From Styela clava (lineage: Eukaryota): a DNA stretch of 64,000 bases. Both the position numbers and the translations under genes were made by a program. The stretch is taken from contig NC_135253.1 in assembly GCF_964204865.1 (NCBI RefSeq), forward strand, positions 15,686,001 through 15,750,000, written 5' to 3'. Below the pieces are notes generated by a model. The model did no database searches. It was not told the DNA's origin and worked only from the letters and a program-made list of their open reading frames with translations. Shown piece after piece: positions 1 to 31,348 of this stretch (position 1 is the stretch's first letter; every line of letters begins with the position of its first letter).

Positions 1-699
1 ACAATTTTCAATGGAACTAATAAGAAAGCAAATTCTATTCGCCGCTTCTTACAGCAATAAATTCTAAAAAAATCTATTCTAGCCAACGATTAACAAGGCT
101 ATGATAATTGCGTATTTGATAACAATACAAAATCTCGTTTCAATAAGTTTGAAAAGCGAACAACAAAATAACACGGTGTATTTTTGACTGACGCTGAAAC
201 GGGTGCAAGGAAAATAATGAAAACCTTGACTAACTGGTATGTACGAGAAACGTACGAGACGTACATTTGCCTCTTGGAAAGTTATTTGTTTTCCGCAAAG
301 AAACTCGACAAAAGTTTAGAAAATAACATATCATGCGCTTGTTTTAATGTCCTATTGATCAAGCATATCCCACTGATAAAATTTCAGATATGCTTCGTTT
401 GTGCGTTTGGTATGAAATGTTTCCTGAAATGCGCGTATCCGATTTTATGATACTATTCCACTCACAGGAAGCTAAACTCCTCAGTACCGGAACTTCAATT
501 TTTCAGGAAATGTGAAAATCTAGTAAAATTGAAGCTCGGTAATTTGAGTAAATGAGTTTGAGTAAATATTAACCGCGTATTATATTTCGCTATGTATATG
601 ATGGCCTATCATTTATTTATTTTATTTCATCAGCTTAAGTTTTCTGAAAAATATAATTAAATAAATCTTTTCGATAAGTTTCTTTTCGTCGGTTATGAG

Positions 700-1087
700 C
701 TGAGCTGGATTTACCATTGGTCATGGTATGCTAAAGCCTAGTTGCCTCGAAATTCAATTAACTATTCATGTTTAGTCGTTTTTTAATTATAAAGGCTTGT
801 TTCAGAATAAATCAAGTTTAAAATTTTCTGAAAAATGATAATTTTTCAATTAGATTGAGATTTCTTGTTCCAAATATTATATTATATATAAATACGGTCG
901 AATAAACGAATTTGTCAAAGTACTCTACCCATCAAACCTTGAGAACAAAGTATGCTAGTTTAAATTAATTAATCAGTTGATACTGTAATAATGTCTTCAT
1001 TTTTTTAAATAAAAAGAAAATATCGATATATCACTATACTGATTCATTCAAGCAGAACGGGCTTGACAAAGCCTAAATCCGACCCAG
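700..1087. mobile_element. Degenerate hAT-type MITE
   Basis: Imperfect TIRs ctgagctggattt / aaatccgacccag; 8-bp TSD gttatgag/gctatgag (perfect gttatgag in copy 2). Present in all three units. Confidence 0.6.
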
Positions 1088-2870: not shown

Positions 2871-5158
2871 ATGCATATCACTACCTGCGAAATGCACACA
2901 TGCGGCGAGCCGTTGAGAATCATTGAAACTGGATTTCCAAATATCTCGGGGGAAACAATCTTGGAAAAGATCGCTTACATACGAGAAAATTGCGATGATA
3001 TAAGGAAGTATGTATTTCTGAAATTGCAAAGTTTTTCATATAACTTTTTCTCACAAGGTTAAACTACTAGAGAAACATAAGAACATTACAATGAGGCTAG
3101 AATCCAATAGTCATGTATTCATTTCTCCCTTCCCTTCTATAGGATATCATCTTGTGGAGTATGCGCACCAAGATGTCGCATAGCCTGAACCCTAACTTGG
3201 TACACAATCTGAATTCAGGTTGTGTGTCATCTTGGTGCGCATACTCCAGGAGGTCCCATCTTGTTTTATACTAAATAAACATTTAGTACTGCCAGATTGT
3301 AGTTGGTATATTTGGCTTTGGTGGAATTTAAAGTTGTAGTTAAACCTAATGCAAAAAATGTCATATTTCTGGAATTTATTTAAGGTTTTTGATGCATGAG
3401 CCTCGTGGACATCATGATATGTTTGGAACATTAAGAGTTGAACCAGATTTACCAAATGCAGATGCAGCATTTATATTTATGCACAATGAAGGATATGGTA
3501 CAATGTGTGGACATGCCATCATCGCCTTGGGAAGGTAGAATGTTATGATTAACAGTTTTGTATATTTTTAAAGTACACACATATGCTTGTTTCATGTATA
3601 TTTTTGTTCATTTTCACACCTGATAATTTTGGTAGAAATAGTAGTTCAGCTTGCGTGTGTGACAAAATAAATTAGTATTTTTGGAATTGGCTTATGAGGT
3701 AGGTTTTTCATCTTTTCTGTGTTTGCTGAGATAATAACCAATGTTTTCAGATACTGCGTTGATTACAATATAGTTGAAGCAAAAGAGCCAGAAACCTTGG
3801 TCAATATTCAATGTCCATGCGGGCTTATTCCAACCTATGTTTCGTATGGTAATGGTTTATCTGGGAGAGTGAGGTTTCAAAGTGTGCCATCATTTGTTTT
3901 GAAAATGGGTAAGAAGAAAATGCTGGTGTGATTTTTTTTTGTTATTCAATATGTTACTGTATACAATGTTGGGTAGACCATAGAGTCTCAGCTCAAGTCT
4001 CTTAAACGCTCGTCTGTACATACCAAGGACGAGCACAATGCTATACAACACATTACATTGTACACATACCTAGATGTTAGAATATGTAATATATATAAAT
4101 GGAAATCTCAATATAAAGCAGTTTTTGTGCATACCTATTTGAACAACAACATTGTCATTTTCAGATGTCAATGTGAATGTACCAAACATTGGTATGATCA
4201 CTGTAGACATATCTTATGGAGGAGTATTCTATGCCTTTGTTTCTACTGACGCACTCGGTTTGACACTCAAGGCTGGTGATGCATTGAAGGCCGTGGAAAT
4301 TGGGCAAGCTGTATTGAATGCCACTAAAAAGATTGTAAGACATACCGGTAACTGTTTGAAGCATTTAAAAATTGCCAAACTTAGATATGAAGGGATTACC
4401 TCAAATCAAACTCATATTCACAAAAAAGCCTGTAAATCGGTATTTAGGAAGGACAAGTTTTACGGAACAGGGTAACAGTATAATTAATTACCAATACAAA
4501 AAAGTTTCCGCCATCGTCCTACATTATTTCACATCTTAGTTTTGTAAAACTGCTAATAATGCACAAACATCATAGGTTAAGGTTGAACACCCGGAAAATG
4601 AAGATCTTGGTTTCCTATATGGCACTATAATATATGACAGAACAGAATTAAAATCAAATGATTTGATTCGACAAATGATAGTGTTTGCGGATCGTGAGGT
4701 ATGTAAAATTACACCTTGAATATATATTACTATCAACAACTATTTTCTGGTCTCTTTTATTTAGCAGTTACATTGAAATTGGTGATTTATTTTTTTAAGT
4801 TGGATAGAAGCCCATGTGGTTCAGGAACAGCAGCTCATATTGCTCTGATACACGCAAAAGGTCTACTGGATGTTAATTGTCAAAAAACATTTCAGAGTAT
4901 CGTCAATGATTCAAAGTAAGTACTCTGATGTCTAAAAAGTTATGGAGTGTCCAATTGGTTCTCAATAACTCTTACAATCACTAGCTCATATACGTTTAAA
5001 TTTTTCCAAGGTTTACTGGAAAGGTTGTCAAAAAAGCCAAATGCGGAAACTTCAAAGCTGTCATAGCAGAAGTGTCTGGGAATGCCTATTACACAGGCAA
5101 AAATTTGTTTACATCAGAGGATAAAGACCCCTTAAAGGCTGGTTTCACCGTCCGATGA
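2871..5158 (+). CDS. L3HYPDH: Proline racemase family protein (trans-3-hydroxy-L-proline dehydratase/L3HYPDH lineage) with Cys/Cys active site; 7 exons, 333 aa, intact
   Basis: Exons 2871-3007, 3385-3534, 3751-3908, 4165-4334, 4576-4698, 4800-4915, 5011-5158; all introns GT-AG, phases consistent, total 1002 nt. Motifs MHTCGEPLRII, EPRGHHDMFG, HNEGYGTMCGH, CPCG, DISYGGVFY, HPENEDLGFLYGTI, DRSPCGSG, EVSGNAYYTG, EDKDPLKAGF are colinear with human L3HYPDH. Confidence 0.93.
3155..3248. repeat. Short palindromic (hairpin/MITE-like) element in racemase intron 1
   Basis: tggagtatgcgcaccaagatg...cctgaa pairs with ttcagg...catcttggtgcgcatactcca; a related palindrome lies at about 47240-47315. Confidence 0.75.
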
Positions 5159-5413
5159 TCAGTTGCAAAATTACCTTCAGCAAAAGTGAAAAAATGTATC
5201 CGTCAGACAAGGGTTCTGCACCTCACATATATATCTCTCACGAAGAAAATTGCTGCTTCTCATTACAGCTGCTAAAATTTACATTTCAATATACATGAAA
5301 ATATCTTGTGTATTCTATCATCGAAGTTACAATATAGAATTAAGACTAAAATAAGGTGACTGCTTAGTTGCTACTTTTTGTATCCTCGATTTGGCGTGGG
5401 GGCTGTTCACGCT

Positions 5414-5821
5414 TAGGGCTGGGCATTTCGAATCGAATATTCGAATCGAATAGTAAATTATTCGAATCGGTTCAGAGCTAAATTTCGAGTCGCCGCCATC
5501 TTGTTTTTATCTTTCCGCTAATGGTCGAGGTGAATTCATAATTTTTTTTTTCATTGGAGTCATATTTTTTCAACGAAATTCTAACATATGACTATTTTCT
5601 GTAGTGAGTTATTGATAAAACGTGTTTGTTATTCTGTGTGAACGCTCAGTAATCTATCTGAGTGATTTATTCTATGTCTTCAGTAATTCATTTGTTGAGA
5701 GAACCAATTACTATAATAAAGTCGCTCACAATTATATATTTTCAAGTATTCAAGATTCGATTAGAAAAAATTATTCGATTCGATTCTGAAATCACAAGGT
5801 ATTCTAAAATGCCCAGCTCTG
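5414..5821 (+). mobile_element. hAT-type MITE (family A; TIR tagggctgggcat, internal tcgaa repeats)
   Basis: TIRs tagggctgggcat / atgcccagctctg; degenerate 8-bp TSD ttcacgct/ttcacgag; same family as 13211-13611. Copies at 27547-27954 and 53502-53909. Confidence 0.8.
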
Positions 5822-7644
5822 TTCACGAGAGCAGAGCAGAGTTCTTTATCATACCTTGGAATGTTCTTTCGAAACATATAAAAAGTAAAAATCGCTTTTA
5901 TTCCGAGAAGTCATGAAATGGAATAAAATAATTTTAATGAAAATTTACACATATACTTATATATAAATTAAAAAGATGCTAGAAATAAAAGCGCATTAAA
6001 AAAAGCCAAGCCTTGTCTAGCCAATACCGGGTGTTAGATCAGACCCTCTGATTGAAGATAACTGGGAATTAAGTCGTCCGGACAATTTATTTGAATTTTT
6101 GCCTCGTGGAATGTCACAAATTGAAAGAAAAAATATTAAAAATTGACCCTGATGTTTTTGTAGACATTTTAACATTACAGGAAGTGAGCAAGAATCTTAC
6201 ACTTGGAGGTCAGAAAGAGTTGTTAGTGTAAGTAATGTATAAAGTAAATAACATACATGTTATTATGCTGAGAAATGCTTCTTCTGTACAGAAATATTGA
6301 TAATTTAAGAAGGATTAATTAATAGCGATATAGTGATCATCTTTGGTTTCAGAAGTCTGTTATGGGCTTTGAATTTATATGTCATATAAAAAATTAATAC
6401 TATCAACCTAAGTCGCATTTTAATAAAAAACACAATTACAAAAACCGACTTTGTCTATAATTTGTGGTACATTGCAAATAATGTATGCTCATTTGAATAT
6501 AGTCCATGAATGTTATCAATAAAGTGATTTTATATAGTCTCAGAGAGGCGACATTTTTAGAAATGGAACAGAGTATGGAGTGGTTTTTCTTCTCACGGGA
6601 TTTGAGGAATTTGAATATCAAACTGAACAGGTATGTTGCTTATATAACTATATATGTACCATCGATGGTACTTTTTGTATACGATTTTTGCTTAGAAATG
6701 CATGTTGTTAATAAAGCTATATAAAGTTGAAAGAATGTTTGCAAGCGTCTATTCCACATATTTATAACTTTTTTTCAACTGTTTCTTTAAACTCAGAATT
6801 GGATCGCCCGTGAACTGATGGAATATAGCACTGCCATTTTGTGTCCAAATATTTGTCATTCGATCGTGGAACTAAATAAAGTTATGGAAATTATGTCAAG
6901 GCCCAAACATATGGAAAAATACGTTGACGATTCGGATGCTGGTCTCATCAGGAATGCTCTGATTAAATATCGAACTCTAGAACAGGCAAATATCTCAATG
7001 TTCAAAATATATGACGAAACTCAGTCTTCGGAGTTATTTTCATGTGATGCGTTGATGTATTATATATTCAATGTTTAAATTGTTGATCATTTATTAATAG
7101 GGCCAATTCCAACAACGCAGTTATTGAAACGTTGCATCGTTCATAATATCTTTTAATTGATTACATTTTATTTTCAGGGCAATGTAGGAGACATGACTGC
7201 AAAACTGCGAATCACGAATCCCCACGAAAACGTGTTAAAAGATCAGAGAGAGGGCGGAGGTGAAACTTTTTGTTTAAAACAATGCAAATGAATTTTGAAA
7301 AAATTGTATAAACCTTTGACTGCTCATTGAAGTAAAGCATTGCAAAAAAACGGGAATTTTCCATTGGCTCAATTGTTTATAGAACCTAAAATTCTGTGAA
7401 GTCTAGTTATTTCCATATATGAAGAATGGTCAACATGTGCATGTTGACAATGTGAGTGATATAATAAGTTATTACATAGCAAATTGCATTCAAGAATTTA
7501 GTTCTTTAATCTGGTTTTCAGTAAAATACTTTCGCGAAGACGTTAAGAATATGCTGAAGAAATTGCAAGGCACGCAACAAAGGTATTTTTAGTATAACTA
7601 GATTTGAACATTACTCTTGTCTTGAATATTTTACCAGAATGTCT

Positions 7645-8026
7645 CTTTGGGGGTCCATGATGACTGCACAGGGGCTCCGCAACGAAATGCAAAGGCTCTG
7701 ATCGATCCCTAATGATTGATATCAATCAAAAGGCCGTTGCATCTTATTGGTTGAGTGTTGACTAATATCCATTGCTGTCAGAAAAGGCAATTACAATTTT
7801 ATTGACTTATGCAACGATCTACATGTGGGAATATTCATTTTCAGCTTTACCCATATGATGACAAAATACAGGTCAAGACTTGCCGTGGACTCGGACCTAC
7901 GAGTTTGCTTGTCACAATGTCGTTTGTGTTGTAAATGAAATATTATCCTTCCCCGTTGGTGTGGCACAGAAATTGATACGGCTTAGGATTGGGGTCCCCG
8001 CGGCCTAATAAGTTTGGGAAGCCCTG
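7645..8026 (+). mobile_element. Non-autonomous hAT (Buster/Charlie-like) remnant with decayed C-terminal dimerization domain
   Basis: Decayed YPLLSEKAITILLTYATIYM..FS...KYRSRL coding remnant; terminal gtttgggaagccctg; inverted relative of 16595-16966. Confidence 0.7.
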
Positions 8027-8399
8027 TATTTGACAATAACATTTAACAGATTATAATGCAGCAGCACTTAGTGAAATAACAAAAAGATTGTGTTTTATTC
8101 GAGGGGCCAATATATTCTCGTGGATCATATCAAACCAGTTATTGGAAAAAACGTTATGATTTTTTCGGATGAAAATCCAGATCTTACTGTTGTAAACACC
8201 GTCACAGAAATTTCTTCATTCGGAGCCTTCCTCACGTAAGTTTTTAATATTTAAAAAAAACTTTTAATGTTTCCATGATATGTTATGTTTACCTGTAAAA
8301 AAGCTCTAGCTATGGAAGCTGTGCGGCATACTTATACGAAATATATAAATTTTCCGATCATATTATGGTCATAAAGGGGACTTATTTCAGTATATAGAG

Positions 8400-9057
8400 C
8401 AGAGGTGGGCACAATTTTTTAGTATAGGAGCCGCATGCTGCAAGTCAGAACTTTAAAAGAGCCGCAAAATTGGGGAATTTATTATTATTATCAAAATTCC
8501 ATGAACAGATAAAAAATTAACACGAGAGTCTAATAACAATAAATAGATAAACAAGGCAACTATGCTCAAATATATGCACAATTTGAGCTCATTTAATTTG
8601 TGTTTCCTTATAGCTGATTTACAAGGGTAGTCTCGTAAGAAGTTTTCATGATTCGTTTCATGGTGCCGTTTAACATTGCTGACTTTATTCTGACTTAGTA
8701 GCTTATGGCAGATTAAGCACAATGGTTTATTCTCCTGACTGGTAAATGAGTATTCTTCTTTCCATTCTGACTTGACAACTCTGTTTTCCTCTTCGTACTT
8801 TCGTTTCTTAATTTAGGATATGCACAGTAACTTAGAGTTAGACTAACTAACTGCAATCAAGCTGCAATACCACCGACGCATCAATAAACATTGACCATCG
8901 TGACGAAAGATTTGCTGACTTGCCTGACTTAAATTCAACGCTACAGCGATTTTCATACTGAAACATAATTTGTCTTAATCATTCACAAAAACTTCTTTAC
9001 AATAAATTAAAAGAGTTTACATTAAAGCCGCCGCGAGCCGCGGTGTGCCCACCACTG
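8400..9057 (-). mobile_element. Buster/GTF2IRD2-type hAT deletion derivative carrying a transposase N-terminal zinc-finger remnant
   Basis: TIRs cagaggtgggcac / gtgcccaccactg; perfect 8-bp TSD atatagag; empty site in the paralogous intron near 11610; minus-strand KRKYEEENRVVKSEW..KPLCLICHKLLSQNKVSNVKRHHETNH. Copies at 30506-31163 and 56488-57146. Confidence 0.9.
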
Positions 9058-9352
9058 ATATAGAGCATAGATAGGTCGTGGAGCTCACTAATTTGTATTT
9101 GATTTTTTTCTTTTGCAGTAAAGGAAAAAATATCATAATAAACGAATGCTTTGGAAACATTTCCAGGACGAAGAACTATGGAATTGACGCAATCAGCACA
9201 TCTAAAGGCAATTTTGCCTTAGATCTCATATTGACGACATGAAATCCGCGTATCAGTTTATATTGGAAGTCAATAACTACCGATTGACGTTGGCAGCTGC
9301 ATAATACATTACTAATATTAATTATTATTAGAATATATAGGACACAATATTT

Positions 9353-10236
9353 CAGTGGTTCCCAACCTTTCTACCTCCACGGCAGATTTGTCCTTGCAGA
9401 CCGGCAAATAAATGAAACATAACATAATCACCTGTGTTTGAGTAACTGTAGTTGAGTAACAATATTTTGGCACATAATACAACAAAATATAATAGAACAC
9501 CAAAATCATCTCAAACAACAAACGACCAATTAAACGCATATAAACACTTTTATTTTAACGCAAAAAATCTTTCACGCATTAACGCAACACACGAAGTGAA
9601 TAATTCATTCTTTTCTTTGGAGCACTCATCGCTTTTTTAAATTTGTGAAGTTTCGCGTTATTCACCCATTAACTTGTTAGGTATTCTTATTTTACATTTA
9701 CATGGCATTTTCCACGTATTTTGGTGTGAAAAGAACCATCATGCGATACAGTTTATTGCGACCAAACACAAATCTGGGTCGAACATTTATCCTTAAATAA
9801 TTTGACAGTATTTTCCGATGTCAATTTTAAGCAATATTCATTGGAAGTATAAACTTTGTAGCGAGTAACATTCTGTCTATTTTATTATTGAAATACTATT
9901 ATACTCTGTGACATTGTTTACTTTTGTGTGGGACGATGTAAACTATTGCTTATTGTAAACTATATGTGAAAATTTAAGTATGTATTTTGCGAATTTGTGA
10001 AAATTAACAAAACGATTTCGCGACGGATTGAACCTTAAAATTGTGATTCCACGTTGGCCAATACAACACCGAGCAATCAATACCATGCTTGTCAAACATC
10101 CATTTTAACGGCGGACGACAAATCGCCAAATAAACCGATGTTACTCCATCTGTTTTGCATTCAATCGGTTACACTGACAGAAAAATAAAACAAACAACAA
10201 CATTTCTCAATTTAGCCGAACGGTCGGGAACCACCG
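9353..10236. mobile_element. Charlie/Buster-like hAT MITE
   Basis: TIRs cagtggttcccaacc / ggtcgggaaccaccg; degenerate TSD caatattt/ccatatat. Copies at 31459-32340 and 57442-58323. Confidence 0.7.
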
Positions 10237-11429
10237 CCATATATGAATATTACTTACTTTTCACATTATATTAATCGAGAATCAACAGTTTTTACCTAAG
10301 TCATTATATCAGAAAGTAAACTCGATAAAGTTGTTTGTGAAGATAAATTAGAATTTTGTTATATATATATCCTACTAAGGCTAGTTTCAGTGTCGATTTA
10401 TGCATTTGTAAATATTTACCATACAAAATGTATAACTAATAAATGTCTAATCAAGTCAGAATGATGTTTTTCCTTTTCTATATTAATTCTTGTATTTGCA
10501 AATCAACTAAACAAAAAAGCAATGCTCAAATACATATAGGCACAAAAGTCAAATCACTACGCCAAAAATACTATCTTAGAATGAAATTATCTTGTTTTCA
10601 ACGCCGTTCTCAGTAATGTCCTTGTTCCACAGAGACAAATATTACATTTGTTTCATATTTCTGAATGTCGCTACAGTCTTGTTGTAGGAAAAAGATATAA
10701 TTCCGCGTGACATTTATCTTAACCATGCAACATCAAATTTACTTAGTGAGACATTTATTACGTACCTAACCATTTTTTGTTCTTGCTAAAGAAATTGAAA
10801 TAAGTACAATCTGCCATATTTCAGTCAAGAAATACTGACTTCCACAACAAGTTAGGAAGCGTCTGAAATGATTCGATGTGACGATAGTATAAGGCGAAAT
10901 TGCTTACTGTCCTTCCTTTCTTTTTTGTTGTCATATTCCTGTTTCCCCAATATGCATGTAAATTCAATAACCTTTGACAAATAATGACGGAAAATGACAA
11001 AGTTTATTGTGAAATATATAGTTAATTTGAAAATAAAATAAAATTAGAATACTTTTGGCGACTTCTTACGTCTATGACCACTGAAAATGTAAAATTGATT
11101 GGTTCATTAGCTGTGGTGAAACCCGCAACCTTCTCGTCATTCAAAATGTCGCTCCAGCAGCAAAACTGTACACTTTTACAAAAACATACATATGAACTTT
11201 CGTGTCCAATAAATGCATGAAGAATAGGAAAAATCAAAATATGATTGTTTCTGATGGTACCAATAGCCAGATCAAGCATTTCGTATTTATGATACTCAAC
11301 CACGACAAAACGTGTAATAAAGAATGACAATGGCAATCGAAAATTGAATTTTTGTTTGTAAATCTTGTGGTTTTTGGGTTATATAATTATTATGCAGTCG
11401 CCAACGTCAATCGATAGGTCCTAAATCGA

Positions 11430-14400
11430 TCATGTAATTAATATGAGATCTAAAGCAAAATTGCCTTTAGATGTGCTGATTCCGTCAACTCCATATTGCT
11501 TCGTCCTAGAAATGTTTCCAAAGCATTCATCCATTATGATATTTCTTCCTTTTCTGCAAAAGAAAAAAATCGAATACAAATTAGTGATCTTCTTAGCTAC
11601 TCCATGCTTCATATACTGAAATAAGAAAACCTTTTTTATGACCATGACACAATCGAAAAATTTATTTGTTTTGAAGTATGCCGCATATTTCCATAGCTAG
11701 AGCTTTTTTACAGGATAACATAACATATCATGGGAACATTAAAAGTTTTTTCAAATATGAAAAACGATATAGGATGTTACCCACGCGAGGAAGGCTCCGA
11801 ATGATGAAATTTCTGTGACAGTGTTTACAACAGTAAGATCTGGATTTTCATCGGAAAAAATCATAACGTTTCTTCCAATAACTGGTTTGATATGATCCAC
11901 GAGAATATATTGGCCCCTCAAATAAAATACAATCCTCTTGTTATTCCACTAAGTGTTGCTGATACACATTATAATCTGTTAAATGTTATTGTCTAATTCT
12001 AATACATTTATTTCATGTGCGATCGATGTGTTCCGGCGCTATGAGGTCTAAGGGTTTATAGTGTTGATAGTTTTTTGCAGCATGAGAGACATTCTGTTAA
12101 AATAATCAAGAACCGAGTAATGTTTGAATCTAGTTATACTAAAAATACCTTTGTTGTGTGCCTTGTAGTTTTTCCAGCATTTCTTTAACGTCTTTGCAAA
12201 AGTATTTTACTGAAAACAAGATTAATTAACTAAATTCATGAATGCAATTTGCTTTGTAATAACCTATTATATCACGTACATTTTGTTAAAGTCGACAGAC
12301 ACTTGTTGACCCATTTGTTTTTTTGCAATACTTTATTTCAATAACCAGCCAAAGGTTTATACAATTTTTTTTTTAATTCACTTGCATTATTTCAAACAAA
12401 AATATTCCACCTCCGCCCTCTCTCTGATCTTTTAACACGTATTCGTGGGGATTCGTGATTCCCAGTTTTGCATTCATGTCACCTACATTACCCTGAAAAT
12501 ACAAAGCAATTGTAGAAGATATCATGAGCGATGCAACGTTTCAATAACTACGTTGTTGCAATTGCCCTTTTTTGAATGAGCAACAGTTCGAACATAGAAT
12601 TAATTGAATATCAATGCATCTACATCAATGCATCACAAAGATAACTCCCAAGTCTGCGTTTTGTCATATATTTTGAACATTGACATATTTACCTGTTCTA
12701 AAGTTCGATATTCGACCAGTGCATTCCTGATAAGACCAGCATCCAAATTGTCAACGTATTTCTCTATATGTTTGGGTCTTGACATAACTTCCATAACCTT
12801 ATTTAGTTCCACGATCGAATGACAAATATTTGGACACAAAATGGCAGTACTATATTCCATCAGTTCACGGGCGATCCAATCCTAAGTTAAAATAAAACAG
12901 TTGATTCGAATTTTAAAATTTGTGAAATAGAAGCATGCAAATATTCTTCCAGCTCTATATTGCTTTATTAAACGTCTTAAATAGCGACAACATTTAAACG
13001 AATCTTAAATATTTTAACATCATGTTCATCCGAAAATCTGAAGACGCTCGAAAAAATGAGAGTTTCATAAAACGATAAATAACATTTATGAGGACATTGC
13101 AAATTGAAATGATTTTTACGTAAGTACGGATCCTAACAGCATGCTCAAAACAAACGGGAGATCTGAAATATTTCTGAGGAAAAATCGTATACATTTATAC
13201 CATCGATGGTTATGGCTGGTCATTTTTGAATACCTGATGATTTCAGAATCGAATCAAATAACTTTTTCAAATCGAATCGAATCTCTAATACTTGGAACAT
13301 TTATAATTGTATGTAACTTTCCTATTGTATTGGGTCCTCCAGACACATAAATTACTGGAAACGAAAAATACATCACTCAGACAGATTGCTGAGCGTTCAC
13401 ACACCATGAAAAACACGTTTTCATCAATACCTCACTGCAGAAAAGAGTCTCATGTCAGGATTCCGTTGAAAAAATATGGCTTCAATAAAAAAAAATGAGA
13501 AATTTACCTCGACCATTGACGGCAAGGAAAAAAACAAGATGGCGGCGATTTGAAATTTCTCTCTGAACCGATTTGAATATTTTACTATTCGATTCGAAAT
13601 GCCCAGCCCTATCGATGGTATAAATGTATAGTTATAAAATCAACATACTTGTTCAGTTTGATATTTTTGTTCTTCAAATCCCATGAGAAGAAATACAACT
13701 CCATACTCTATTTCATTTCTAAAAACATCGCCTTTTTAGAATATATAAAATCACTTTATTGATAACAATTTAGAAACTATATGCAAATGGGCACATTTGC
13801 AATGTGCCACAAATTATACGCAAATCAGGTTTTTCTGATTGGGATATTAAGGAAATGTGACTAAGGTTAATAGTATGAATTTTTTATGTGACATATACAT
13901 GCGATACGAATAACAACCCCAGAAACTAAAGATCTCTATATTCCTTCTAATCCTTTATAAATCAATCAATCAATCAAATCGTTTTTATCAGCCATCTCGG
14001 CAAAGCTGAACATAAATGAAAACAATTGAGATCACAAAAATAAGCAGGATATCCGCGAAATGACTATTCGGTCTACCCGTCAGCGGCAACCTTAAAATAG
14101 CTTAAAACTTGAATACAAAATTTGCACAGCGCGAAAATTTTTTATGCGAGAACAGCATCGCCCAAGATGACGCTGAAAAGCAATAATAACCTTATTATTT
14201 ATAGAATCAGGGAATTCCCCCTATATTATTTCGGAGCAGTGCTGTTCCGGCACTTTTAGGTTAACGTTTCTGGAAAAAAGTTAGACAATACATATTAGGT
14301 TTAGTAATAGGACGATACCAAAGAAATGCCAGTACTGAAACTGGTAGCTAACGAGAAAAGATATCTTCATGACAGTAAAAATACCTCAATGAACATGTAA

Positions 14401-16441
14401 TGTGCATGCCAATGTACATGTAATTGTATTGTAACATGAAAAAAAGTACAGATCAACAATCATGTCTAGCAGACACTGAACACTGAAATAAAACTACTAT
14501 GATATTGGGGAATGCAATACACATTTATGAAGAATATAAGGATAGTAAATGGTTGAGTAACTGAGTTTTAAAATTTGGATTTGTTGAGTCTTTAAATAAC
14601 CAATATTTATGTACAGAAACTTTCTGTACTTTTCTATCAGAACAACAACATGTGTGTTGCAAATTACTTACACTAACAATTCTTTCTGAAAGCCAAGTGT
14701 AAGATTCTTGCTCACTTCCTGCAGTGTTAGAATGTCTACGAAAACATCCTGGTCAATTTCTAATATTTCTCCTTTCAATTTGTGACATTCCATGAGGCAA
14801 AAATATTCTTCGCTGACAACAATCAATATTCCGGTGTTTGACTTGTTGTATAATTTCCAAGTCTTGATAAACATTTCAGCCAAACCAATTGTCATATCCG
14901 TGCTATCAAAATCTTGCTCAAATGGAATTCTTGCTTTCAGTAAAGAGCGTTTGTAAACATGCTTGAGAAAACTTGCTACACCAAATCCCCATCCTGAAAC
15001 ACCCCATTCCAAAAGTTTAGGAAGTTGGATTCCTTCATCAGTTTTATTCACCATGTAATCTGCTCTCGTTATTGATAGCTCATACCGGTCCTGGAACATG
15101 ACTCATTTACCATATGTATTTTAAATAACAGATTATTCATAAAGAGTCGTTCAATTACACGATAAATCGGTAGGAAGTGTTAAAAACAACACATGTGAAT
15201 CTGTAGTTAATTTATTACATCGTGAAGACGTGAAGAGTGTTATAATTATATTCATTTTCAGGTCCAGCAGTTGGAAAAATACCATTGCAACGTATCAATT
15301 TCTACACATGCAGTCATGAATCAAGAACTTGCCATGATATATTTTCTGTCAAGTAGAACCCTACCCGCACCTGCAACCGACCTTCGACACTTACATCTCG
15401 GACAAGAATAAACAGTTTACTTACCTCACGATTGACTGATTTCGACACTCTTTCGTATACGCCGAACATTTTTTTAATGAGCCAGTCCGCTTTCGCAACA
15501 CTAAAAGTAAATATATAACTCCATATTCATTCCGCATACCTAAAGATCACAGACAAGCATGAAACGGTATGAGACTTACAAAACTGTCTAAAGACTGATA
15601 TTTTTTCCTGTACTAAGTTCCTATTTATGTGATCTCAGACTAGATATGAGTTTGTTGAATAAGTTGTTATATATTTATGATCACTACATTCGCAAACTGA
15701 GTAGGATTTACCTGTCCAATCCTTTCTTCACAAAATCGAAATCAAAACTGACATTATGATGAAGTTTGTGAAATTCTGGGCAAACTTGGTTTACTCTGCG
15801 CATAACATCAACGGGCATTCTCGAGGGAAACAAACAAAATGGAGCCATCTTGTCATGCTGCAAAACCAACCATTAGTAAATTTTATTCGACATAGATCAC
15901 CTATTTTTAACGCATGGTATCTGGATAAATTGCGAGTGCTTACTAAAAGAGAACAAAACTCTTAATGCGGCTTCAATCGTACGCCCATGTGTATAACTGA
16001 TAACATTTTACTATCAGCGCAACGAATTTTACTTGAATGTAATTATTCTGTGTGGACAAATTTCGGTTGACAAGGATACAGTGAATGAAAATAGTTAGTC
16101 TTATCATTTTTTGGAATTTACTTTCTAAAAATTAAATATTTTGACGGAAGAGATGTTTTTTTTATTTTTCATAAAGGTGTATAGTGATCAAACCTGGCAG
16201 AGCGAGGGACAATACAACCAATTTTCGAGAATTTTAATTTTTATAGAAAAACCTAAAACTAGTTTAATCTTCCACAATAATGATAGATACGTACTGGTTT
16301 TCTTGACTCGTCATACCACTGAAAGAAAAATTTTTGCTTCTTGGCCTCTTCGATCGCTGATGTTGAGCATTTTTTCAACCATTCTTTCGATTGAAATACA
16401 TTTTCAAATTGATGTTCAATAACAAAATTATCAGAAGACAT
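11430..16441 (-). CDS. GSS: Divergent glutathione synthetase-like ATP-grasp ligase (eukaryotic GSS fold); 10 exons, 481 aa, intact
   Basis: Exons (minus strand) 16441-16295, 15857-15712, 15500-15425, 15090-14672, 13718-13649, 12881-12693, 12492-12411, 12209-12149, 11916-11785, 11553-11430; total 1446 nt, phases consistent. Motifs APFCLFPS, RADYM, KLLE, WIARELME..A..CP, VLKDQREGG, YIL..IKP, TEISSFG, SRTK are colinear with human GSS. Confidence 0.9.
13211..13611 (-). mobile_element. hAT-type MITE (family A) in GSS-like intron 5
   Basis: TIRs tatggctggtcat / atgcccagcccta; perfect 8-bp TSD tcgatggt; empty site in the paralog near 6660. Copies at 35909-36534 and 61297-61922, both with an internal insertion. 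Confidence 0.88.
13961..14590 (-). mobile_element. Probable 5'-truncated LINE (CR1/L2-like) 3' end in GSS-like intron 4
   Basis: Minus strand ends in a (gatt)n tail, with an ORF2-like terminus FKTQLLNHLLSLYSS* at the other end; absent from the paralogous intron near 6300. Confidence 0.55.
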
Positions 16442-16594
16442 TTTCAATGTATTTAGTATATCTTTATGAACCGGGTAATATATTTTATTATATATGTATC
16501 TGAAATAAAATAAATATCCTTCTTTTCATGTGATATGCGAATCACTTCTAAACAAAAGACTATACAAAAATACCATCTATGGCAAGTGTATAGT

Positions 16595-16966
16595 CAATTT
16601 TTGTGCCTGACCAACGAGGAAAGATCGTGTTTCTTTTAGAACACGAAAACCGTTAATGTGATGAATGAACTTATCAATTTATCGATTTTCAGAGCAAACG
16701 TGATAAGCAAACACATTATCATCATATAGGTAAAAGCTGAAAATGCTGCCTCACACGTGTGGGTCGTTGCCAAAGGCAATAAAATCTTAATTGCCTTTTC
16801 TGACAGCAATGGATACTCATCCATAACGCTCAAACAAAAAGATGAAATGGCTTTTGGTTTGATTGAAATCAAATATTAAAGATCGATCAGATTATTTTCA
16901 TATTGATGAGGATCCCCCGTGCAGTCATCACGGACCACCAGGGGCACCGTAGTTTGGGAAACCTTG
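16595..16966 (-). mobile_element. Non-autonomous hAT (Buster/Charlie-like) remnant with dimerization-domain fragment
   Basis: ORF 16636-16872 EYPLLSEKAIKILLPLATTHTCEAAFSAFTYMM is typical of the hAT C-terminus; terminal caaggtttcccaaac. Copy at about 39522-39893. Confidence 0.75.
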
Positions 16967-16979
16967 CTTTAGAAATTAA

Positions 16980-17339
16980 TTATCAATATTTCTGTACAGA
17001 AAAAAAACTTCTCACTTACATCAAACCATATAGGGTGAGACATTACTTACACTAACAATTTATTCTTAACCTTCAAGTGCATGACATACTGTAGTGTTAA
17101 AATGTCCACAAAACGTCATGGTCAATTTCAAATCGTAACATTCTATAAGGCAAATTTATTAATCGCACACAACCATCAATATCCCATCGTTTGAACTCTT
17201 GCTCCCTTTTCAAAGTTTGGTAAATATTTCTGCCAGACCAGGCGTCATATCTGTGCCAGCAAAACCGTGCTCATGTTGAATTCTCGCTTCCAGTAAAAAG
17301 CTTTTGTAAATCTGCTTGAGAAAACTTGCTACACCAAAT
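16980..17339 (-). pseudogene. Decayed relic of GSS-like exon 4 and its donor site (third, older paralog)
   Basis: Aligns by eye with about 14600-14990 (gcttgagaaaacttgctacaccaaat; ttacttacactaacaatt) but has many indels. Copy at about 39907-40266. Confidence 0.75.
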
Positions 17340-18369
17340 GTTTGTTATCGTGAAATTGGGGGGAGACGTCTGGTGCTATGCCGCGATATCACGAGAAAAG
17401 CGCAAATTTGAATTGAAACACTTACATCGATATTTGGCTCGGACCAGTTGTAGGGCCCATTTGATGTTACTTTTACTTTTGTAAACGACTCTATTGGGTA
17501 TGAAAAGTTCATAAGCATCGTATTGCAAAGTCGTCGTCGTTGTTAGTCTTGATATTGAAACGACCTTTTGTTGAAGGGGATATTCGCGTTTCTCCACAAC
17601 CAAGTTTAGAATTTTCAGTGCTTAAGAAAGAAGTGGCAAAAGGCTATTTTATTTTCAAATCAACTCTGGGTATTACGGGACCCGATATTAAATCCCAAAT
17701 TTTGCTGTTTTATTTCAATTCATTGTGATATTTTTTTCTTCTGTCAAAAGTTACCGCCGCCGTTGCGAATGTCCGCCGTTTGGCTGAGGGAATTCGCTGC
17801 TATGGTTAACATTTTTATTGGAAACGAAGTGGACCTATCGATCGTTATGTTGTTAGTTCAGCTTGATAGAAATATAAATATATTGTTGCAGAAGCTACCA
17901 ATAGCAAAAGCTCAAGTGCCCAACGTGTTGTCACAGAAAAACCACCACAACCAGTGGCCACGTCTGCTCGGAGTTTTGCCTGGATTTAAACAGAACAGGT
18001 TCTGATAACTATTGTAACATTAGCGTGACAGCAACCCGACCTGATGTTTAATTGTGAGTACCAGCATTTGTTGGTAATTGTCATTACAACAATTGATGCT
18101 GTTTGACAGAAATTACTCGTAGGAACCATCGTACTCATGCAAGCCTTAATCAGGTTAAAAAATTGGCCGCTACTTCTATCATAGTAGTAATTACTACTGT
18201 TAATACTAGTAACATAAAAACATCCTGGTCAGGATTTCTGACATTCAATTCAATTCAATCAAAACATTCAATTGCAGGTACCATTCTTTGATAATACAAC
18301 AAAGTCAGCGTGCAAATGATCCGGCGTCTATTTCGCCGTCGCCTGGACCTCTCCAGAGCATGCGGTCTA

Positions 18370-18915
18370 ATTAGGCTTCCCGCTGCTTGTCAACAGGGAA
18401 CCTATTGTATTCCTGTGTTTTATTATTAATATTTATTTATTATTATTTATTATTTTTATTATTTTTTTTTCAAATTGGTCCTACAAACTTGAAATTCACC
18501 TCAAAAGTTCTCTTATGCAGACTCTGCTATAGCCAAAAACAGTTATTCAGTGCAATTGTGGGCATCTGAAAATACAACACACAAAAAACAGAGTACATTA
18601 AAATATAGAAAAAGAAACAAAATTCTCAGTTGTTCTCTGCACATATGTATTCCTCCTGTTGCAATGTGCATTGTCTCATTCAAAAAAATGTAACTTGTTA
18701 ATTTTATACCCATTGAAAAGCGTTTTTTCACCCTCATTGTGCAAACGCCTTGAAGCGTACATTCATCTAAACTTTCATTATCGCTGCCAGATCTCTCGGA
18801 CAAAGTTATAGCCATCTTCAAAACGAAATAAATATTTTTATTTTGAAGTTTGCATGTAAATGGATCCATGAAAAGAGAATTCGCAAAATGCTAAATATTA
18901 CATCGCCTGTATATT
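18370..18915. repeat. Possible interspersed repeat (Helentron/DINE-like start: short hairpin followed by tta microsatellite)
   Basis: aggcttccc...gggaacct stem followed by a (tta)n tract whose length differs between copies; the far end is uncertain. Confidence 0.3.
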
Positions 18916-19314
18916 TTCATGTGTATCTACAATGCTTAATCACCAAAAATTTTTGGCGAAACTATCAAAACTAATTAATACTGAACTAATCGTAAAATAT
19001 AAAACGGTAACATGCATAATGTATTTTTGTATTTTTTGAGAAAGCAATTATTAACAAGGTATGTGCATGTGTAATAAACAAGGTACATATATATACAAAA
19101 TTTCTAGACACGGTTCAGGTTCAGGTGATCTTTCCAGAGAAAAATCAAAATTTATGTATTTGTCGTTAGAGAACACAGATGATAGTCATTGTATAGTAAG
19201 TCAAATATCCAATTCTGAAAACAGTTGGAAGAATTGAATACGATGGATGAGCCACGGATTGCGGTTATAACTAAATTTAGTTGGATTTGTTGTAAATTAT
19301 TTTTTGTAACCTAT

Positions 19315-21193
19315 TTACCCAGCTTTTAACAACAATGGTTTGCTTTCATCAATGATGCTTCTTCGTTGACTCGGAGTGTCTGTTTCATGAACCATCTCTG
19401 CAGAGAGTCGTCTATAGTCTGGTTTAACAAGGGCAACAAGGCAGCGCTGCATAAAACATGCAATCAAAGGAACTATGATAGCCATGGTTGCCCCATGCAT
19501 GTCCATAATTTTTCTAATCACAGCACCAAAAATGAACGCTGCCACCTCGGAAGGAAAATAATATATTGACATAAGTATCGTATTGTCGAACGGGTAGATG
19601 ACTTCAGTGAGAAATTCCGTAAAAATGACGTTGGAGCATATGCGCAAGGCCGCAAGCGCGGGATAGAGAACGATTAACACTGGAAAATATTTACATAAAT
19701 GCCCAAAATATATTCCTCCAGTTACCAGCAACATTCCGACAACGACTGAAAAATAATAATTTTTGAGCTAGTCACAAAATACTGAATTAACGTTTTCTAC
19801 ATGAATTACAGTATTTGCAATAAAATTCCAAGTCTACAGGTAAGTTTGCGAAAAATACACACCTGTACATATGTAGGCCTATATATAATGTTTCAGAAAG
19901 TATGTATTTTTGTCTGGTTACAGGGTAATGCAAAGTTTGCATGTGCGGTATGCAAGAAAATAGCATATGATATGTATTAGAAGATGTATGGATCGTAGAT
20001 AAATAAATTGTGCAATATTAACTGTGAATAGAGTAATTCAAGTGATAAAAGAATAACATATATACTAACACCTAGATGACTTACTTGCCATAGCGAATTC
20101 TTTGAATTTCTTTAATCTGTCCAAATAGTATCCAACAGCAAGACCAGCAATTATCGATGCAAGAGTACCAGCTATTCTAATCCACCCAATTTCACGGTAT
20201 GTTACTTCGGGAAATGTCATTGAGATCAACGAAGGAGCAAGCACTTTTGCTAATATCAAGGCTGACAATCCAAGTGAGTTAGCACAAGCAAGAAGTAGAA
20301 ATTGACGATTTACCAACAAATTCAAAACTAATTTCAAGAAAGATGTGTCTACTTCATGGGAAGCCCTCTCGTTTTTATCCGCTTTTAACGAAGTAAGTAT
20401 GTTAGCCTGCGCTGCTCCCGGCGGTGTTGGTGGTTGATTTTTCAACATAAAAACGAAAAACAATGCTGATATCGTAAGAATGAGAGCAGAAGTTCCTTTT
20501 GTGCTCATGAAAATAAGCCTAATATCATGGGAATTGTTCTCTATTTGAGTAGCGTTTCTGTAAGGAAGACACATAGGGTAGACTAATGCTGCTGTCGCCT
20601 CTCCCAAACTCACAGCGGACCATGTTACGCCGATGGCGGTCGCCGTTTCCTGTGCAGGAAACCAGCTAGCAGCAAGCGTAACCGGTAATATAAAATTGAT
20701 TCCGTTGGATAATCCAGTAAATAGTACTGCAGATAGAATCATCGGATACAGTTTTCTGCAAAAAAATAAGAAGCATATGCGGTTAAAGTGTGTCATACGT
20801 ACACTGTACATTTAAATATTGTGAAAAACATCAACCGTGCGGCAGGTTATTTGGTACATGAAAAATAAAACTATACAAGAATTACATAACTTGCCTGTTT
20901 TTAAATGCAAAAGTTCCTACGCCGATTCCGATACCAGCCGACAGCGTCATTATTGTTGCTTGAAATCGTAACCCAATTTTATTTTTGAAAATTGGTATCA
21001 ACACCGTACATACTCCAGCCACCAAGAAGTTCAACAGCGTCAAAATATCTATTTGAAATGGGGTGACGTTGAAGTAATTCGCGACGACGTCATTTACAAA
21101 ACTGTACGAATAAATTTCACAGAGAATGATCGCCATGCAAATTGATAAAACTGCTAGAAACACCCAACGAATTGGATAAACTTTGTATTCCAT
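19315..21193 (-). CDS. MFS transporter, FLVCR/SLC49-like; 3 coding exons, 466 aa, intact
   Basis: Exons 21193-20895 (GC donor ag|gcaagt), 20755-20085, 19745-19315; total 1401 nt in frame. Motifs YKVYPIRW, IGLR, WFPAQETATA, PPTPPGAAQ, LDRLKKFK, EVIYP, DYRRL; multiple hydrophobic helices. Confidence 0.9.
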
Positions 21194-24100
21194 CTCTTCT
21201 ATCTGAGAACAATAGAAAATATATTCTATTTTCAAAGAACATTCAAAGTCAAAAACTACCGTTGCATCAGCAATGCATTGGCGTTAATCAGACCTTATAA
21301 TATTACAATGATCACAAAAATTTGTGTGAGGGTGGGGAGTGGGTAAAACAAAACGTTCAAAAATGATTTCGCGAAACAACGCAGTTTACGAAGTCAAGAA
21401 ACATACAGTTCTTTGAGGATAGCATTTCTTCTCAGATGCAAAATTATCTTGTGGTTAAAATTTTTTAATTTTAGTCGTTTAACACGGCTGGTTTTGGGCA
21501 ACTTTCGTTTGAGAATTTCAAAATCTCTAATAGTACCTTTAAATGCCTTAATAAGACGTATAAAAAACCATCTCTTTCAATATGCCCGTTATACCTTTTA
21601 TCACTTGCACTTCCTTTGTTGTTTATTCCGGCCTTTTATTATTGGTAATTTTGATATTCAAGGTGACTTATAAGGAGAATAGTTGCAGAATTTATGTACT
21701 AATTTCACAGATTGTTTATTAGATAAGAATAAAAAATCTAGACAAACGACATGTGCAAAATGTAGCTAAGCTCGATGATGAGCCGTGCAAATTTGAAACT
21801 CTGTATCTAAAAGAACATGCGATGTGCAGAGGATTAAAATAATGGAAAATGGAATTAACAATGAACGAAGTACTCTCTTTAATATCTGACAATATGCATC
21901 TTAATAACGAGTTCTTTCACTTATAATTTTTTCGAAAAAAGTTCGAACCAAAAGTTGTAATTTAAGTGTGCTGCAAACGATTTCATCTATCGTTCTTAGC
22001 TGAGCTTTGACTTGGCTGATAGGGAGAACTGCACATTCACGCTACTAATCAATGTTGATATCGTCCTTGAGTTTCTAATTCAACTTCTGCTTAGAGAAAC
22101 AATTTTCAATGGAACTAATAAGAAAGCAAATTCTATTCGCCGCTTCTTACAGCAATAAATGCTAAAAAAATCTATTCTAGCCAACGATTAACAAGGCTAT
22201 GATAATTGCGTATTTGATAACAATACAAAATCTCGTTTCAATAAGTTTGAAAAGCGAACAACAAAATAACACGGTGTATTTTTGACTGACGCTGAATCGG
22301 GTGCAAGGAAAATAATGAAAACCTTGACTAACTGGTATGTACGAGAAACGTACGAGACGTACATTTGCCTCTTGGAAAGTTGTTTGTTTTCCGCAAAGAA
22401 ACTCGACAAACGTTTAGGAAATAACATATCATGCGCTTGTTTTAATATCATATTGATCAAGCATATCCCACTGATAAAGTTTCAGATATGCTTCGTTTGT
22501 GCGTTTGGTATGAAATGTTTCCTGAAATGTGCGCATCCGATTTTATGATACTATTCCACTCACAGGAAGCTAAACTCCTCTGTACCGGAACATTAATTTT
22601 TCAGGAAATGTGAAAATCTAGTAAAATTGAAGCTTGATAATTTGAGTAAATCTCATGATATTAACCTCGTATTATATTTCGCTATGTATATGATGGCCTA
22701 TCTTATATCCGTACTATCCGACCGCAGTTTATTATAGAATATCTCACATTTATTCCATCAGCTTAAGTTTTCTTTATTTGGTGATCAAAAACATAAAAAA
22801 TCTTTTCGATAAGTTTCTTTTCGTCGGTTATGAGCTTGGCTGGATTTACCATTTGTCATGGTATGCTAAAGCCTAGTTGCCTCGAAATTCAATTAACTAT
22901 TCATGTTTAATCGTTTTTTAATTATAAAGGCTTGTTTCAGAATAAATCAAAATTAAAATTTTCTGAAAAATGATAATTTTTCAATTAGATTGAGATTTCT
23001 TGTTCCAAATATTATATTATATATAAATACGGTCGAATAAACGAATTTGTCAAAGTACTCTGCCCATCAAACCTTGGGAACAAAATATGCTAGTTTAAAC
23101 TGATTGATCAGTTGATACTGTAATAATGTTTTTATTTTTTTAAATAAGAGGAAAATATCGATATATCACTATACTGATTCATTCAAGCAGAACGGGCTTG
23201 ACAACGCCTAAATCCGACCCAGGTTATGAGAAACATTACGCAGCAACAATGTTTTACCTGTATTATATATTTTATCTGTTATAGCTGCAGATACGAAATT
23301 TGTTGTTTGGGGCGACTTTCTGCACCCCTAGATTTGGGGGAGGGGTCAGTTCACAATTCGAAAGTTGAGTTCTTAATCATACCTTGAAATGTTCTTTCGC
23401 GACATATAGAAAACAAAAATCACTTTCATACTGAGATGTCAGGAGATGCAACAAAACAATTTAGTGAAAACTTACGCATTTTATTAAAAAGGTGCTAGAA
23501 ATAAAGTGCGTTGGAAAAGCGAAAATACGAATAGTTCTGGCAATCCTTGTTTAGCCGATCCCCGATGTTAGAATAGGACATTTGTTAATGCAGCGGTTTG
23601 CAGCAGTGTATTTAAGTATTGACAGCCGTAATTATATGACGTCATAGTTAGAATTGTTTTGGTAGAAAGTTCAAGAATATCTGTCATTTCCTGTTGTCTG
23701 CTTAGGGCACGAGTTTAGAGCGTTAGTGTTGTTCCTATGCATATTTTAGGCTTGGCTTGATTAAGATTATTTTAGAGCCTAATTTGCTGTTTTGAATTAA
23801 TATGTAGAATTATAAAGGTAGGATATGTGCTGGTATTGAGCTTGGTTGTATATTGTTTCGATGAAAATGTAATTGTGATTTCTATTTAAACGGCTTCTTT
23901 TTCTGTATTCATATAATATTCTGACAAAGAAGCACTGAATTCAATTCAGTTACCGCAGTTTCGAAAGTATGATTATCACTTTAATTGGAAGTCAATACAT
24001 ATATATCGTTATGTTATTTATTAATTTCATGGACTCGTCCTGTGTACAGGTGTATGATTGTTATTTCATGCATTTTTTTTTTGAATTATTAAAAGTTTCG

Positions 24101-25003
24101 GAACACGAGTATTAACTGCATTGAATTGGAACATAATATTATATCAGTCTGAAGATTTGAAGATAACTCCGAATTTAGTCGTTCACACAATTTCTTTTTA
24201 CTGTGTGACGGGGATTAATTTTAACAAAAACTATTCAGGGCTGCTTACATAATCCATTTGAGCTTGCAATTCTCATTTATTGGCTAGCAAAAATTATAGC
24301 TCATTTTTTTTATATAAATAGTTGTTTCGTGCATTGAATATTGTAATAAATAAGTCTATGCTATTACAGTAGCTATACTATTTCAAAATCCCACATAGCC
24401 ATACTAAACAACAAATCTTCTGATAGAATTCCGAACATAGATGTCTTAAGTAGCGTTTTAAAATGATCAATATCAAATCGCAATATGTCAAAAACAAACA
24501 AAAAATGACAGAGCCCAAATAGATTCGAATACACTTATTGACTGCAAGTGTAACCAACGCATGGCCCATTGGTCGGATCCGGTCGGTAAGGCTGCCTCTG
24601 ATAGAATTTAATTTTCTACATGAGAATGACATCCAAATTTTGGCTGTTGTCTTGTGACACAAAAAACACAGTGAATCATGACCATTTATATTTTTCGATT
24701 TGATTTATTAGCAGTTCTTATTCAATTCGGTAAAAACAATAGTGGTTTTATGATGGCCAGTATAGAAGCTATCTTAAAATAAAAACACAGAATCACCACA
24801 CGAAATCGAAATTACAAAGGTTAGAAACTGGTTAATGTGAGAAAATTTGAGGAGATTTACCAAGTTAAGTGTTTGCACCCAGGGCTGCCGCAATCTGCAA
24901 AGTTTGAAAACAAAACTTTCTAATATTTAGGTCGTTTTAGGTTGTTGGTTCTGTGTGCTGAAATAGTAGAAATTTAACAAGTGATACTTATTAGAATCAG
25001 ACC

Positions 25004-31200: not shown

Positions 31201-31348
31201 GTATTTGATATTTTTCTTTTGCAGTAAAGGAAGAAATATCATAATAAACGAATGCTTTGGAAACATTTCCAGGACGAAGAACTATGGAGTTGACGCAATC
31301 AGCACATCTAAAGGCAATTTTGCCTTAGATCTCATATTGACGACATGA
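28226..31348 (+). pseudogene. 5'-truncated inverted GSS-like paralog, copy 2
   Basis: Duplicate of 6093-9242. Confidence 0.82.

Follow-up and report, generated by a model that had tools for sequence, protein, structure and literature searches.

The ascidian Styela clava carries an intact gene of the glutathione synthetase (GSS) family whose product has, as judged from its residues, lost what defines a functional glutathione synthetase (EC 6.3.2.3), namely the gamma-glutamyl pocket, N146 and K305, and the normal Gly and Ala loops. The gene, here called copy 1, lies on the minus strand of a 64,000-nucleotide stretch of contig NC_135253.1 (assembly GCF_964204865.1, positions 15,686,001 to 15,750,000), which was analysed as a whole and is referred to as the window. 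With a probability of roughly one half, the copy 1 protein is predicted to be a ligase that uses ATP to form amide bonds and takes an acyl donor other than, and more hydrophobic than, that of GSS. Neofunctionalisation of GSS is as a kind already known, and the Styela gene is real and intact.

The window is eukaryotic sequence with 32-38% GC, and the spliced frame of copy 1 comprises 1446 nt, or 481 codons with a single, terminal stop, in ten exons separated by introns that are GT..AG in 9/9 cases. NCBI splits the gene into two partial models, P0004 (241/241 residues identical to copy 1 before it runs into intron 7) and P0006 (95/95). P0005 is the full-length model of copy 3, identical over the 383/383 residues inside the window and 472/481 identical to copy 1, and P0001 is copy 2 starting at residue 136. 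Copies 1 and 2 share 8/9 splice donors, and the Gly-loop exon junction is also used by P0001, P0005, P0007 and P0010. The last two are further full-length Styela paralog types, 84.6% and 82.7% identical to copy 1, and three such types make up the divergent GSS-like clade. Matches of an exon-4 query are named 'glutathione synthetase-like [Styela clava]', and their clusters hold 11 models. The open frame, the ten exons, the GSS domains and the agreement of the NCBI models uphold the original prediction, made from the sequence alone, that this is an intact GSS paralog. An uncommon GAG acceptor ends intron 8 in this gene (11916) and in a truncated paralog (8104); it is kept in all tandem copies and is used by the NCBI models too.

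The protein contains the Pfam domains GSH_synth_ATP (E 1e-49, 169.5 bits at a cut-off of 25) and GSH_synthase (E 2e-12, 48.2 bits at a cut-off of 20.9), and its top PDB match in HMMER is human GSS (2HGS, E 2.5e-42). An AF2 model based on a 125-row alignment reached a pLDDT of 94.4 and a pTM of 0.92. Foldseek returned 2HGS as its top match (TM 0.90), and VIA-align superposed it on human GSS with Z 47.5 and a root-mean-square deviation of 2.0 over 464 residues, so that the structural comparison proposed with the original prediction yielded a GSS fold. The circularly permuted GSS ATP-grasp fold is predicted across the whole chain by a model that leans to it because its alignment is mostly canonical GSS. 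ESM Atlas matches of the GSS-like protein were GSS clusters only, and the ATP-grasp inositol-phosphate kinases ITPK1 and PPIP5K2 are among the structural matches of the model. Copy 1 is thus a GSS family member by homology and fold, sharing with human GSS both Pfam domains, the full fold, collinear motifs and kept catalytic residues; all motifs quoted in the original prediction were found in the spliced protein, in register with the human enzyme. In contrast to GSS, which is normally a single-copy, pocket-invariant housekeeping enzyme, copy 1 is multi-copy and only ~25% identical to human GSS.

Active-site residues were compared in an alignment of the three Styela paralogs with 133 other hits (400-640 aa, out of 149 profile-search hits). 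Sites are labelled in human GSS numbering through the 2HGS alignment and the residue assignments in the available text of PMC2845819, PMC6297838, PMC5919673 and a bioRxiv preprint. The Mg-binding acids D127, E144, E368 and E425 and the catalytic R125 and R450 are kept (6/6) in all three paralogs, as are K364 and K452, and further M129, V362, I401, G369, G370 and G464. The four acids are named as Mg ligands for the yeast and trypanosome enzymes, and the two arginines are given roles in catalysis and at the substrate carboxylates, in the sections of PMC2845819 that treat them. The gamma-glutamyl contacts, on the other hand, are kept in 0/6 cases (Q211>S, E214>Y, N216>C, Q220>C, R267>L, Y270>F; R267 is present in 132/132 other rows), and the mean hydropathy of these six positions rises from -3.3 to +1.6, which bears out the claim of a rebuilt and more hydrophobic gamma-Glu-Cys pocket. 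S149 and S151 are both glycine in the Styela paralogs, and the Ala loop, aligned without a gap, retains 1/6 positions. The Gly loop from E368 to Y375 spans 7 residues as against 8 in 131/133 canonical rows; the change GGGNN>GGVKY reported for it is real, but is actually a one-residue deletion. The polar residues for ATP, Mg and acyl phosphate are kept at 8/11 positions versus 0/6 for the gamma-Glu contacts (Fisher p 0.009, the groups having been chosen after the alignment was inspected). Conservation in at least 90% of the other rows defines 48 columns; the Styela clade keeps 25 of them, and these are invariant among the three paralogs (25/25 versus a background of 300/388, p 0.004). The alignment demonstrates, at the level of residues, that the loss was selective, with the donor pocket gone and the ATP/Mg/acyl-phosphate chemistry predicted to be largely kept.

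The R267A mutant of human GSS retains 2% of kcat and the R267W mutant 0.3% of activity, as given in the available text of PMC6297838, so that with 0/6 contacts kept, glutathione synthesis by the copy 1 protein would be very unlikely. A divergent yet working glutathione or homoglutathione-like synthetase is by the same token highly improbable. Its Pfam domains, its fold and its NCBI name would fit such an enzyme, no canonical GSS of Styela appeared among the named matches (no whole Styela genome was read), and the Globodera clade-2 GSS5 is described in the available portion of PMC5919673 as weakly canonical in activity despite 0/6 gamma-Glu contacts. However, N146 and K305 are gone together with the pocket, and the 25/48 conserved columns kept compare with 80% of a near-identical set of 50 in the most deviant of the 133 canonical rows.

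For the favoured ligase a mechanism may be proposed by analogy with GSS chemistry. ATP and Mg would be bound via the kept D134, E151, E374 and E432 and by K370 and K459, R132 would place the donor carboxylate for acyl-phosphate formation, and R457 would hold the carboxylate of an amino-acid acceptor beneath the rebuilt Ala loop. The donor, uncharged or aromatic, would sit in a pocket of W157, Y219, C221, C225, L274 and F277. One may further speculate that the loss of K305 and N146 is offset by two new charges fixed in the three Styela paralogs, K378, which takes the place of N373, and E311, which takes that of G303 and lies two residues ahead of the missing lysine. The Asn of the E-x-N motif is missing from some active ATP-grasp enzymes (PurK, PurT).

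A number of observations weigh against the ligase reading. N146 and K305, each present in 132/132 canonical rows, are replaced in all three paralogs. Mutants of human GSS at these positions are strongly impaired, K305 less than N146. The original prediction had mentioned altered nucleotide contacts, which are real, but had understated them, since both residues are also invariant in 30/30 Globodera rows and in trypanothione/glutathionylspermidine synthetases; GTKK>ELNK and EINTISASFGG>EWGVSGWGFG were correctly reported, and these changes remove K305 and N146 themselves. The available text of PMC2427367 describes seven triphosphate residues that are strictly conserved in trypanothione/glutathionylspermidine synthetases; the equivalents of N146 and K305 belong to these seven, of which the Styela protein keeps 5/7. 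Also changed are N373>K, M398>V, Q308>M and P365>D, and one Gly-loop glycine is lost. On the 15-residue ADP list in the accessible part of PMC5919673, 8 residues are identical to the potato reference, which equals the lowest nematode score, and in the same text the nematode GS-like precedents come without a demonstrated new substrate. Special conservation of the new pocket residues was looked for and rejected (17/23 versus a background of 300/388, p 0.8). Copies 2 and 3 differ by 3 synonymous and 6 non-synonymous changes, a dN/dS of 0.56 that is not significant. In the neighbourhood, one of the three copies of a racemase-family gene is frameshifted. Its Cys/Cys catalytic pair, considered as a novelty of the cassette, was rejected as such, as proteins of Phallusia, of Solemya and of a further Styela locus (P0173, 80.5%) share it, and the racemase neighbour is therefore not cassette-specific.

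The loss of N146 and K305 makes a pseudo-enzyme a serious rival, as the caveat in the original prediction had anticipated, although we consider it somewhat unlikely. Such a protein would be a folded, selected carrier, sensor or scaffold of GSS fold, its ligand a nucleotide and/or a hydrophobic small molecule, and would form no bond. The losses extend beyond these universally kept residues to N373, Q308 and a Gly-loop glycine, neither purifying selection nor fold needs catalysis, and the derived pocket residues are not specially conserved. Against this, R132, D134, E151, K370, E374, E432, R457 and K459 have persisted along a very long stem and are shared by all three paralogs, and a mere nucleotide binder has no obvious need of two arginines for substrate carboxylates and catalysis. 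Distinctly unlikely is an ATP-using enzyme with altered chemistry, in which carboxylate activation would be followed by intramolecular cyclisation or ester/thioester formation, or which would transfer a phosphoryl group, in place of intermolecular peptide ligation. The changes are indeed concentrated in the Ala loop and around the beta and gamma phosphates (N146>G, G303>E, K305>N, N373>K, the shorter Gly loop), they are fixed in all paralogs except for G/S at residue 153, the N146 position, and ATP-grasp proteins include the kinases ITPK1 and PPIP5K2. However, the R450 equivalent, which binds the acceptor carboxylate, is kept.

Selection on the copies was estimated by the Nei-Gojobori method on exact exon coordinates. 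Copy 1 and the truncated paralog (262 codons) differ by dN 0.068 and dS 0.235 (dN/dS 0.29, p 1e-6), copies 1 and 2 (482 codons) gave a dN/dS of 0.21 (p 8e-4) and copies 1 and 3 one of 0.28 (p 0.005). The GSS-like gene is under purifying selection, and neutral decay is rejected for the GSS-like lineage, though not for each single copy. Neutral evolution, which the original prediction had named as a refuting outcome, is thereby excluded at ratios of 0.21-0.29. The synonymous divergence of copy 1 from the other copies (~3.7%) is above the cassette-wide 1.1%, and this excess may reflect gene conversion between paralogs.

The original prediction had located copy 1 correctly but treated it as a single gene, whereas the window is made up of a cassette of 22-26 kb that occurs three times in tandem, the copies being ~1% apart pairwise and differing by indels (Table 1). 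Every cassette copy holds a racemase-family gene, a 5'-truncated GSS-like copy and a GSS-like gene; cassette copies 1 and 2 additionally hold a decayed GSS exon and a 3-exon gene of the major facilitator superfamily (MFS). That the gene is a recently dead or neutrally drifting duplicate of a segmental amplification, or the triplication an assembly artefact, is very improbable. The cassette does contain broken pieces (the truncated copy, the decayed exon, the frameshifted racemase), and the splitting of copy 1 into two partial NCBI models would also fit. Yet the frames of 481 codons are open, several paralogs are 83-98% identical with dN/dS of 0.21-0.29, and three copies that differ pairwise by ~1% and by indels, with a transposon in one of them, are more than two haplotypes can give.

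Table 1. Features of the Styela clava window (positions in the window; residues are numbered as in copy 1, except that those before a > sign or marked as kept are in human GSS numbering).
Feature	Position	Strand	Remarks
GSS-like gene copy 1	11430..16441	minus	intact, 10 exons, 481 aa; ATG at 16441, stop at 11430
copy 1 exons 1-5	16441-16295, 15857-15712, 15500-15425, 15090-14672, 13718-13649	minus	
copy 1 exons 6-10	12881-12693, 12492-12411, 12209-12149, 11916-11785, 11553-11430	minus	
exon 4	14672..15090	minus	R132, D134, E151 (kept R125, D127, E144); N146>G153; new W152, W157
exon 4, gamma-Glu contact positions	14672..15090	minus	replaced by S216, Y219, C221, C225
exon 5, substrate (S-) loop	13649..13718	minus	R267>L274, Y270>F277
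exon 6	12693..12881	minus	G303>E311, K305>N313, Q308>M316
exons 7-8	12149..12492	minus	K364, E368 kept (K370, E374); N373>K378; Gly loop 1 residue short
exons 9-10	11430..11916	minus	E425, R450, K452 kept (E432, R457, K459); Ala loop rebuilt (I466, S467, T468, S469, K470)
GSS-like gene copy 2	34129..39368	minus	intact, 481 aa, 9 amino-acid differences from copy 1
GSS-like gene copy 3	59517..63813	minus	exons 3-10 open, exons 1-2 past the window; NCBI P0005
truncated second GSS-like copy	6098..9242	plus	5'-truncated, residues 221-481, open frame; 245/261 identical to P0008
decayed GSS-like exon 4 fragment	17042..17339	minus	stops, 73% DNA identity
cassette copy 1	1..22098		may start before the window
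cassette copy 2	22099..48047		~1.1% different from copy 1; carries a transposon insertion
cassette copy 3	48048..64000		continues beyond the window
proline-racemase-family gene (L3HYPDH-like) copy 1	2871..5158	plus	intact, 7 exons, 333 aa, Cys87/Cys252; identical to NCBI P0170
racemase-family gene copy 2	25004..27290	plus	broken, one-base frameshift in exon 1 (25004-25146)
racemase-family gene copy 3	50957..53245	plus	intact
MFS transporter copy 1	19315..21193	minus	intact, 3 exons, 466 aa, FLVCR1/2-like
MFS transporter copy 2	42232..44101 (approximate)	minus	open frame, 9-nt in-frame deletion in exon 1

The insertion of ~2.9 kb at 44452-47376, confined to cassette copy 2, has an 8-bp target-site duplication and 11-bp terminal inverted repeats (10/11 matching) typical of a hAT transposon, and its open reading frames are fragmented and gave no Pfam match. 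A Spin-doc/BED-type zinc finger fragment (Pfam E 3.5e-7) at 8453-8812, in the last intron of the truncated GSS-like copy, is likely a transposon remnant. An element of ~380 bp with inverted ends occurs at 13215-13640 (intron 5 of copy 1) and at 5414-5817 (downstream of the racemase gene) with 81% identity and is likely a miniature inverted-repeat transposable element. A 159-bp stretch of copy 1 (14290-14448) is 100% identical to 35982-36140 and 61370-61528 in copies 2 and 3, where it is inverted and lies at a different intron position.

Database searches confine the divergent clade to Styela clava. Against 5.8 billion proteins, the full-length query gave 3 matches among 5268 candidates and the exon-4 query 3 matches among 196 candidates, all from S. 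clava. A profile search of 1.84 billion representatives returned one cluster at 973 bits, which could hide relatives more than 50% identical, followed by canonical-type GSS at no more than 200 bits. Scans for the locus in viral, prokaryote-genome and metagenome collections confirmed 0 of 409, 167, 597 and 114 pattern matches. These blanks describe the databases searched and are no proof of absence in unsequenced styelids. The named next matches, at 24-29% identity, are ordinary GSS of fish, Ciona, Phallusia, amphioxus, a crinoid, a nemertean, a mite and a clam. A quick free tree (37 rows drawn from the 149 hits and the paralogs) left the Styela clade unplaced on a stem of ~3.8 changes/site; the tree holding it with Ciona, Phallusia and P0022 had a log-likelihood 20 higher (p-AU 0.865) and is compatible with tunicate descent without demonstrating it. 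P0022 itself clusters with the Ciona and Phallusia GSS (99% SH-aLRT) and may be another tunicate canonical GSS. The lengths 146, 76, 82 and 124 of copy 1 exons equal those of human GSS exons. A 76-77 bp exon is given for human GSS in the available text of PMC5769757. Horizontal transfer and contamination were ruled out because the gene has nine spliceosomal introns and its closest matches are animal GSS. The best reading is that copy 1 is a fast-evolved vertical duplicate of GSS, confined to Styela on present data.

The racemase-family protein is nearest to human L3HYPDH (E 7e-105). With residue assignments taken from the accessible text of PMC9309405, it has Cys at both catalytic sites, where the L3HYPDH/proline racemase family comparison gives Cys/Thr, and the residues ahead of the second Cys are changed. 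The Thr motif is present in 97/98 other hits, mostly unnamed or bacterial. Cys/Cys is the racemase/epimerase type within the proline racemase family according to the part of PMC3958920 that covers it, and the Cys/Cys L3HYPDH-like proteins of tunicates and a bivalve (2871-5158; P0173, P0189, P0169, P0220) are predicted to be racemases or epimerases rather than dehydratases. The Styela proteins also carry G11>C and changes at 238-240, positions near-invariant in the 98 other hits. P0171 is another damaged-looking racemase copy, and P0290/P0291, which share a 25.4 Mb contig with the GSS-like models, are a Cys/Thr (dehydratase-type) paralog 91.6% identical to the cassette protein, suggestive of a very recent epimerase/dehydratase switch inside one locus family. 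The MFS protein has FLVCR1/2 as its only PDB matches (E 2e-9), by which it is likened to the FLVCR (SLC49) transporters, and generic MFS clusters as its ESM Atlas matches; its first intron (20895-20755) is GC-AG with a GC donor. The C-terminus of the MFS protein fits an acidic dileucine lysosomal/vacuolar signal.

Ligase-like gene, racemase and MFS gene are linked in cassette copies 1 and 2, and racemase and ligase-like gene in copy 3, but any segmental repeat would be expected to carry neighbouring genes along, and this linkage is no evidence of a shared pathway. It is possible, and can be put forward only tentatively, that the genes form a cluster whose Cys/Cys enzyme provides a substrate of (hydroxy)proline type, either D or epimerised, and whose FLVCR-like transporter carries substrate or product; D-Pro as the ligase substrate is suggested by gene neighbourhood alone. 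A fuller version, which we regard as doubtful, would be a Styela biosynthetic cluster assembled from three housekeeping genes, in which an epimerase makes a D-(hydroxy)proline-type amino acid, the GSS-derived enzyme joins this non-ribosomally to a peptide or amino acid of hydrophobic character, and the product is stored in vacuoles. Here the rewired phosphate site would consist of a lysine shifted from 305 to 373 and of Glu311 in place of Asn146, the transporter with its lysosomal-type dileucine tail would load the vacuoles, and the cassette would have been amplified for dose.

The closest precedents are the GS-like effectors of plant-parasitic cyst nematodes (Gpa-GSS22 and GSS30; PDB 5OEU, 5OET), the only repurposed GSS family found in print (PMC5919673). 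According to the same source they resemble copy 1 in that GSS was duplicated and expanded, the gamma-Glu pocket is non-canonical (0/6 in GSS22), the catalytic Arg is kept and a new substrate is proposed. Unlike copy 1, they are secreted, and E144, N146 and K305 are kept in the 30/30 Globodera GS and GS-like rows. Copy 1 belongs to another phylum, shows 17-21% identity in structural alignments and sits beside racemase-type and MFS genes; inspection by eye of its first 40 residues revealed no hydrophobic secretion signal. As regards descent from the tylenchid clade-3 expansion to which the effectors belong, the tree data are compatible with a tunicate origin of copy 1. Most likely copy 1 would work as the nematode effectors are proposed to work, and it looks like a chordate repurposing of GSS independent of the nematode case. 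Plant homoglutathione synthetase (soybean, PDB 3KAL) has the same fold (Z 46.2) and an acceptor specificity altered through the Ala loop, but keeps the gamma-Glu-Cys donor pocket, which in copy 1 is the most changed part. The glutathionylspermidine and trypanothione synthetases share the GSS-type ATP-grasp (Z 20-22) and are C:N ligases with other substrates, but keep 7/7 of the triphosphate residues where copy 1 keeps 5/7.

No description of the Styela GSS-like gene or cluster was found in the open-access literature, subscription papers not being covered. A review of ascidian DOPA-peptides (2010, PMC3039461) lists Styela peptides and, in its available text, describes the mechanism and site of their synthesis as unexplored and non-ribosomal routes as likely. 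A link to tunichromes was considered and is unsupported; Phallusia makes tunichromes according to that text, yet yielded canonical GSS only. A host-encoded ligase would make part of the ascidian peptide-synthesis question testable, although nothing ties the GSS-like gene to those peptides. A second, chordate case of GSS repurposing, presumably cytosolic and with racemase-type and transporter genes as neighbours, narrows the substrates to be considered to a short list. If the protein is inactive, it represents a selected and amplified GSS pseudo-enzyme, whereas activity without N146 and K305 would mean that 'invariant' ATP-grasp residues can be rewired. The cluster, if true, would be an animal-encoded route to non-ribosomal peptides containing D-amino acids.

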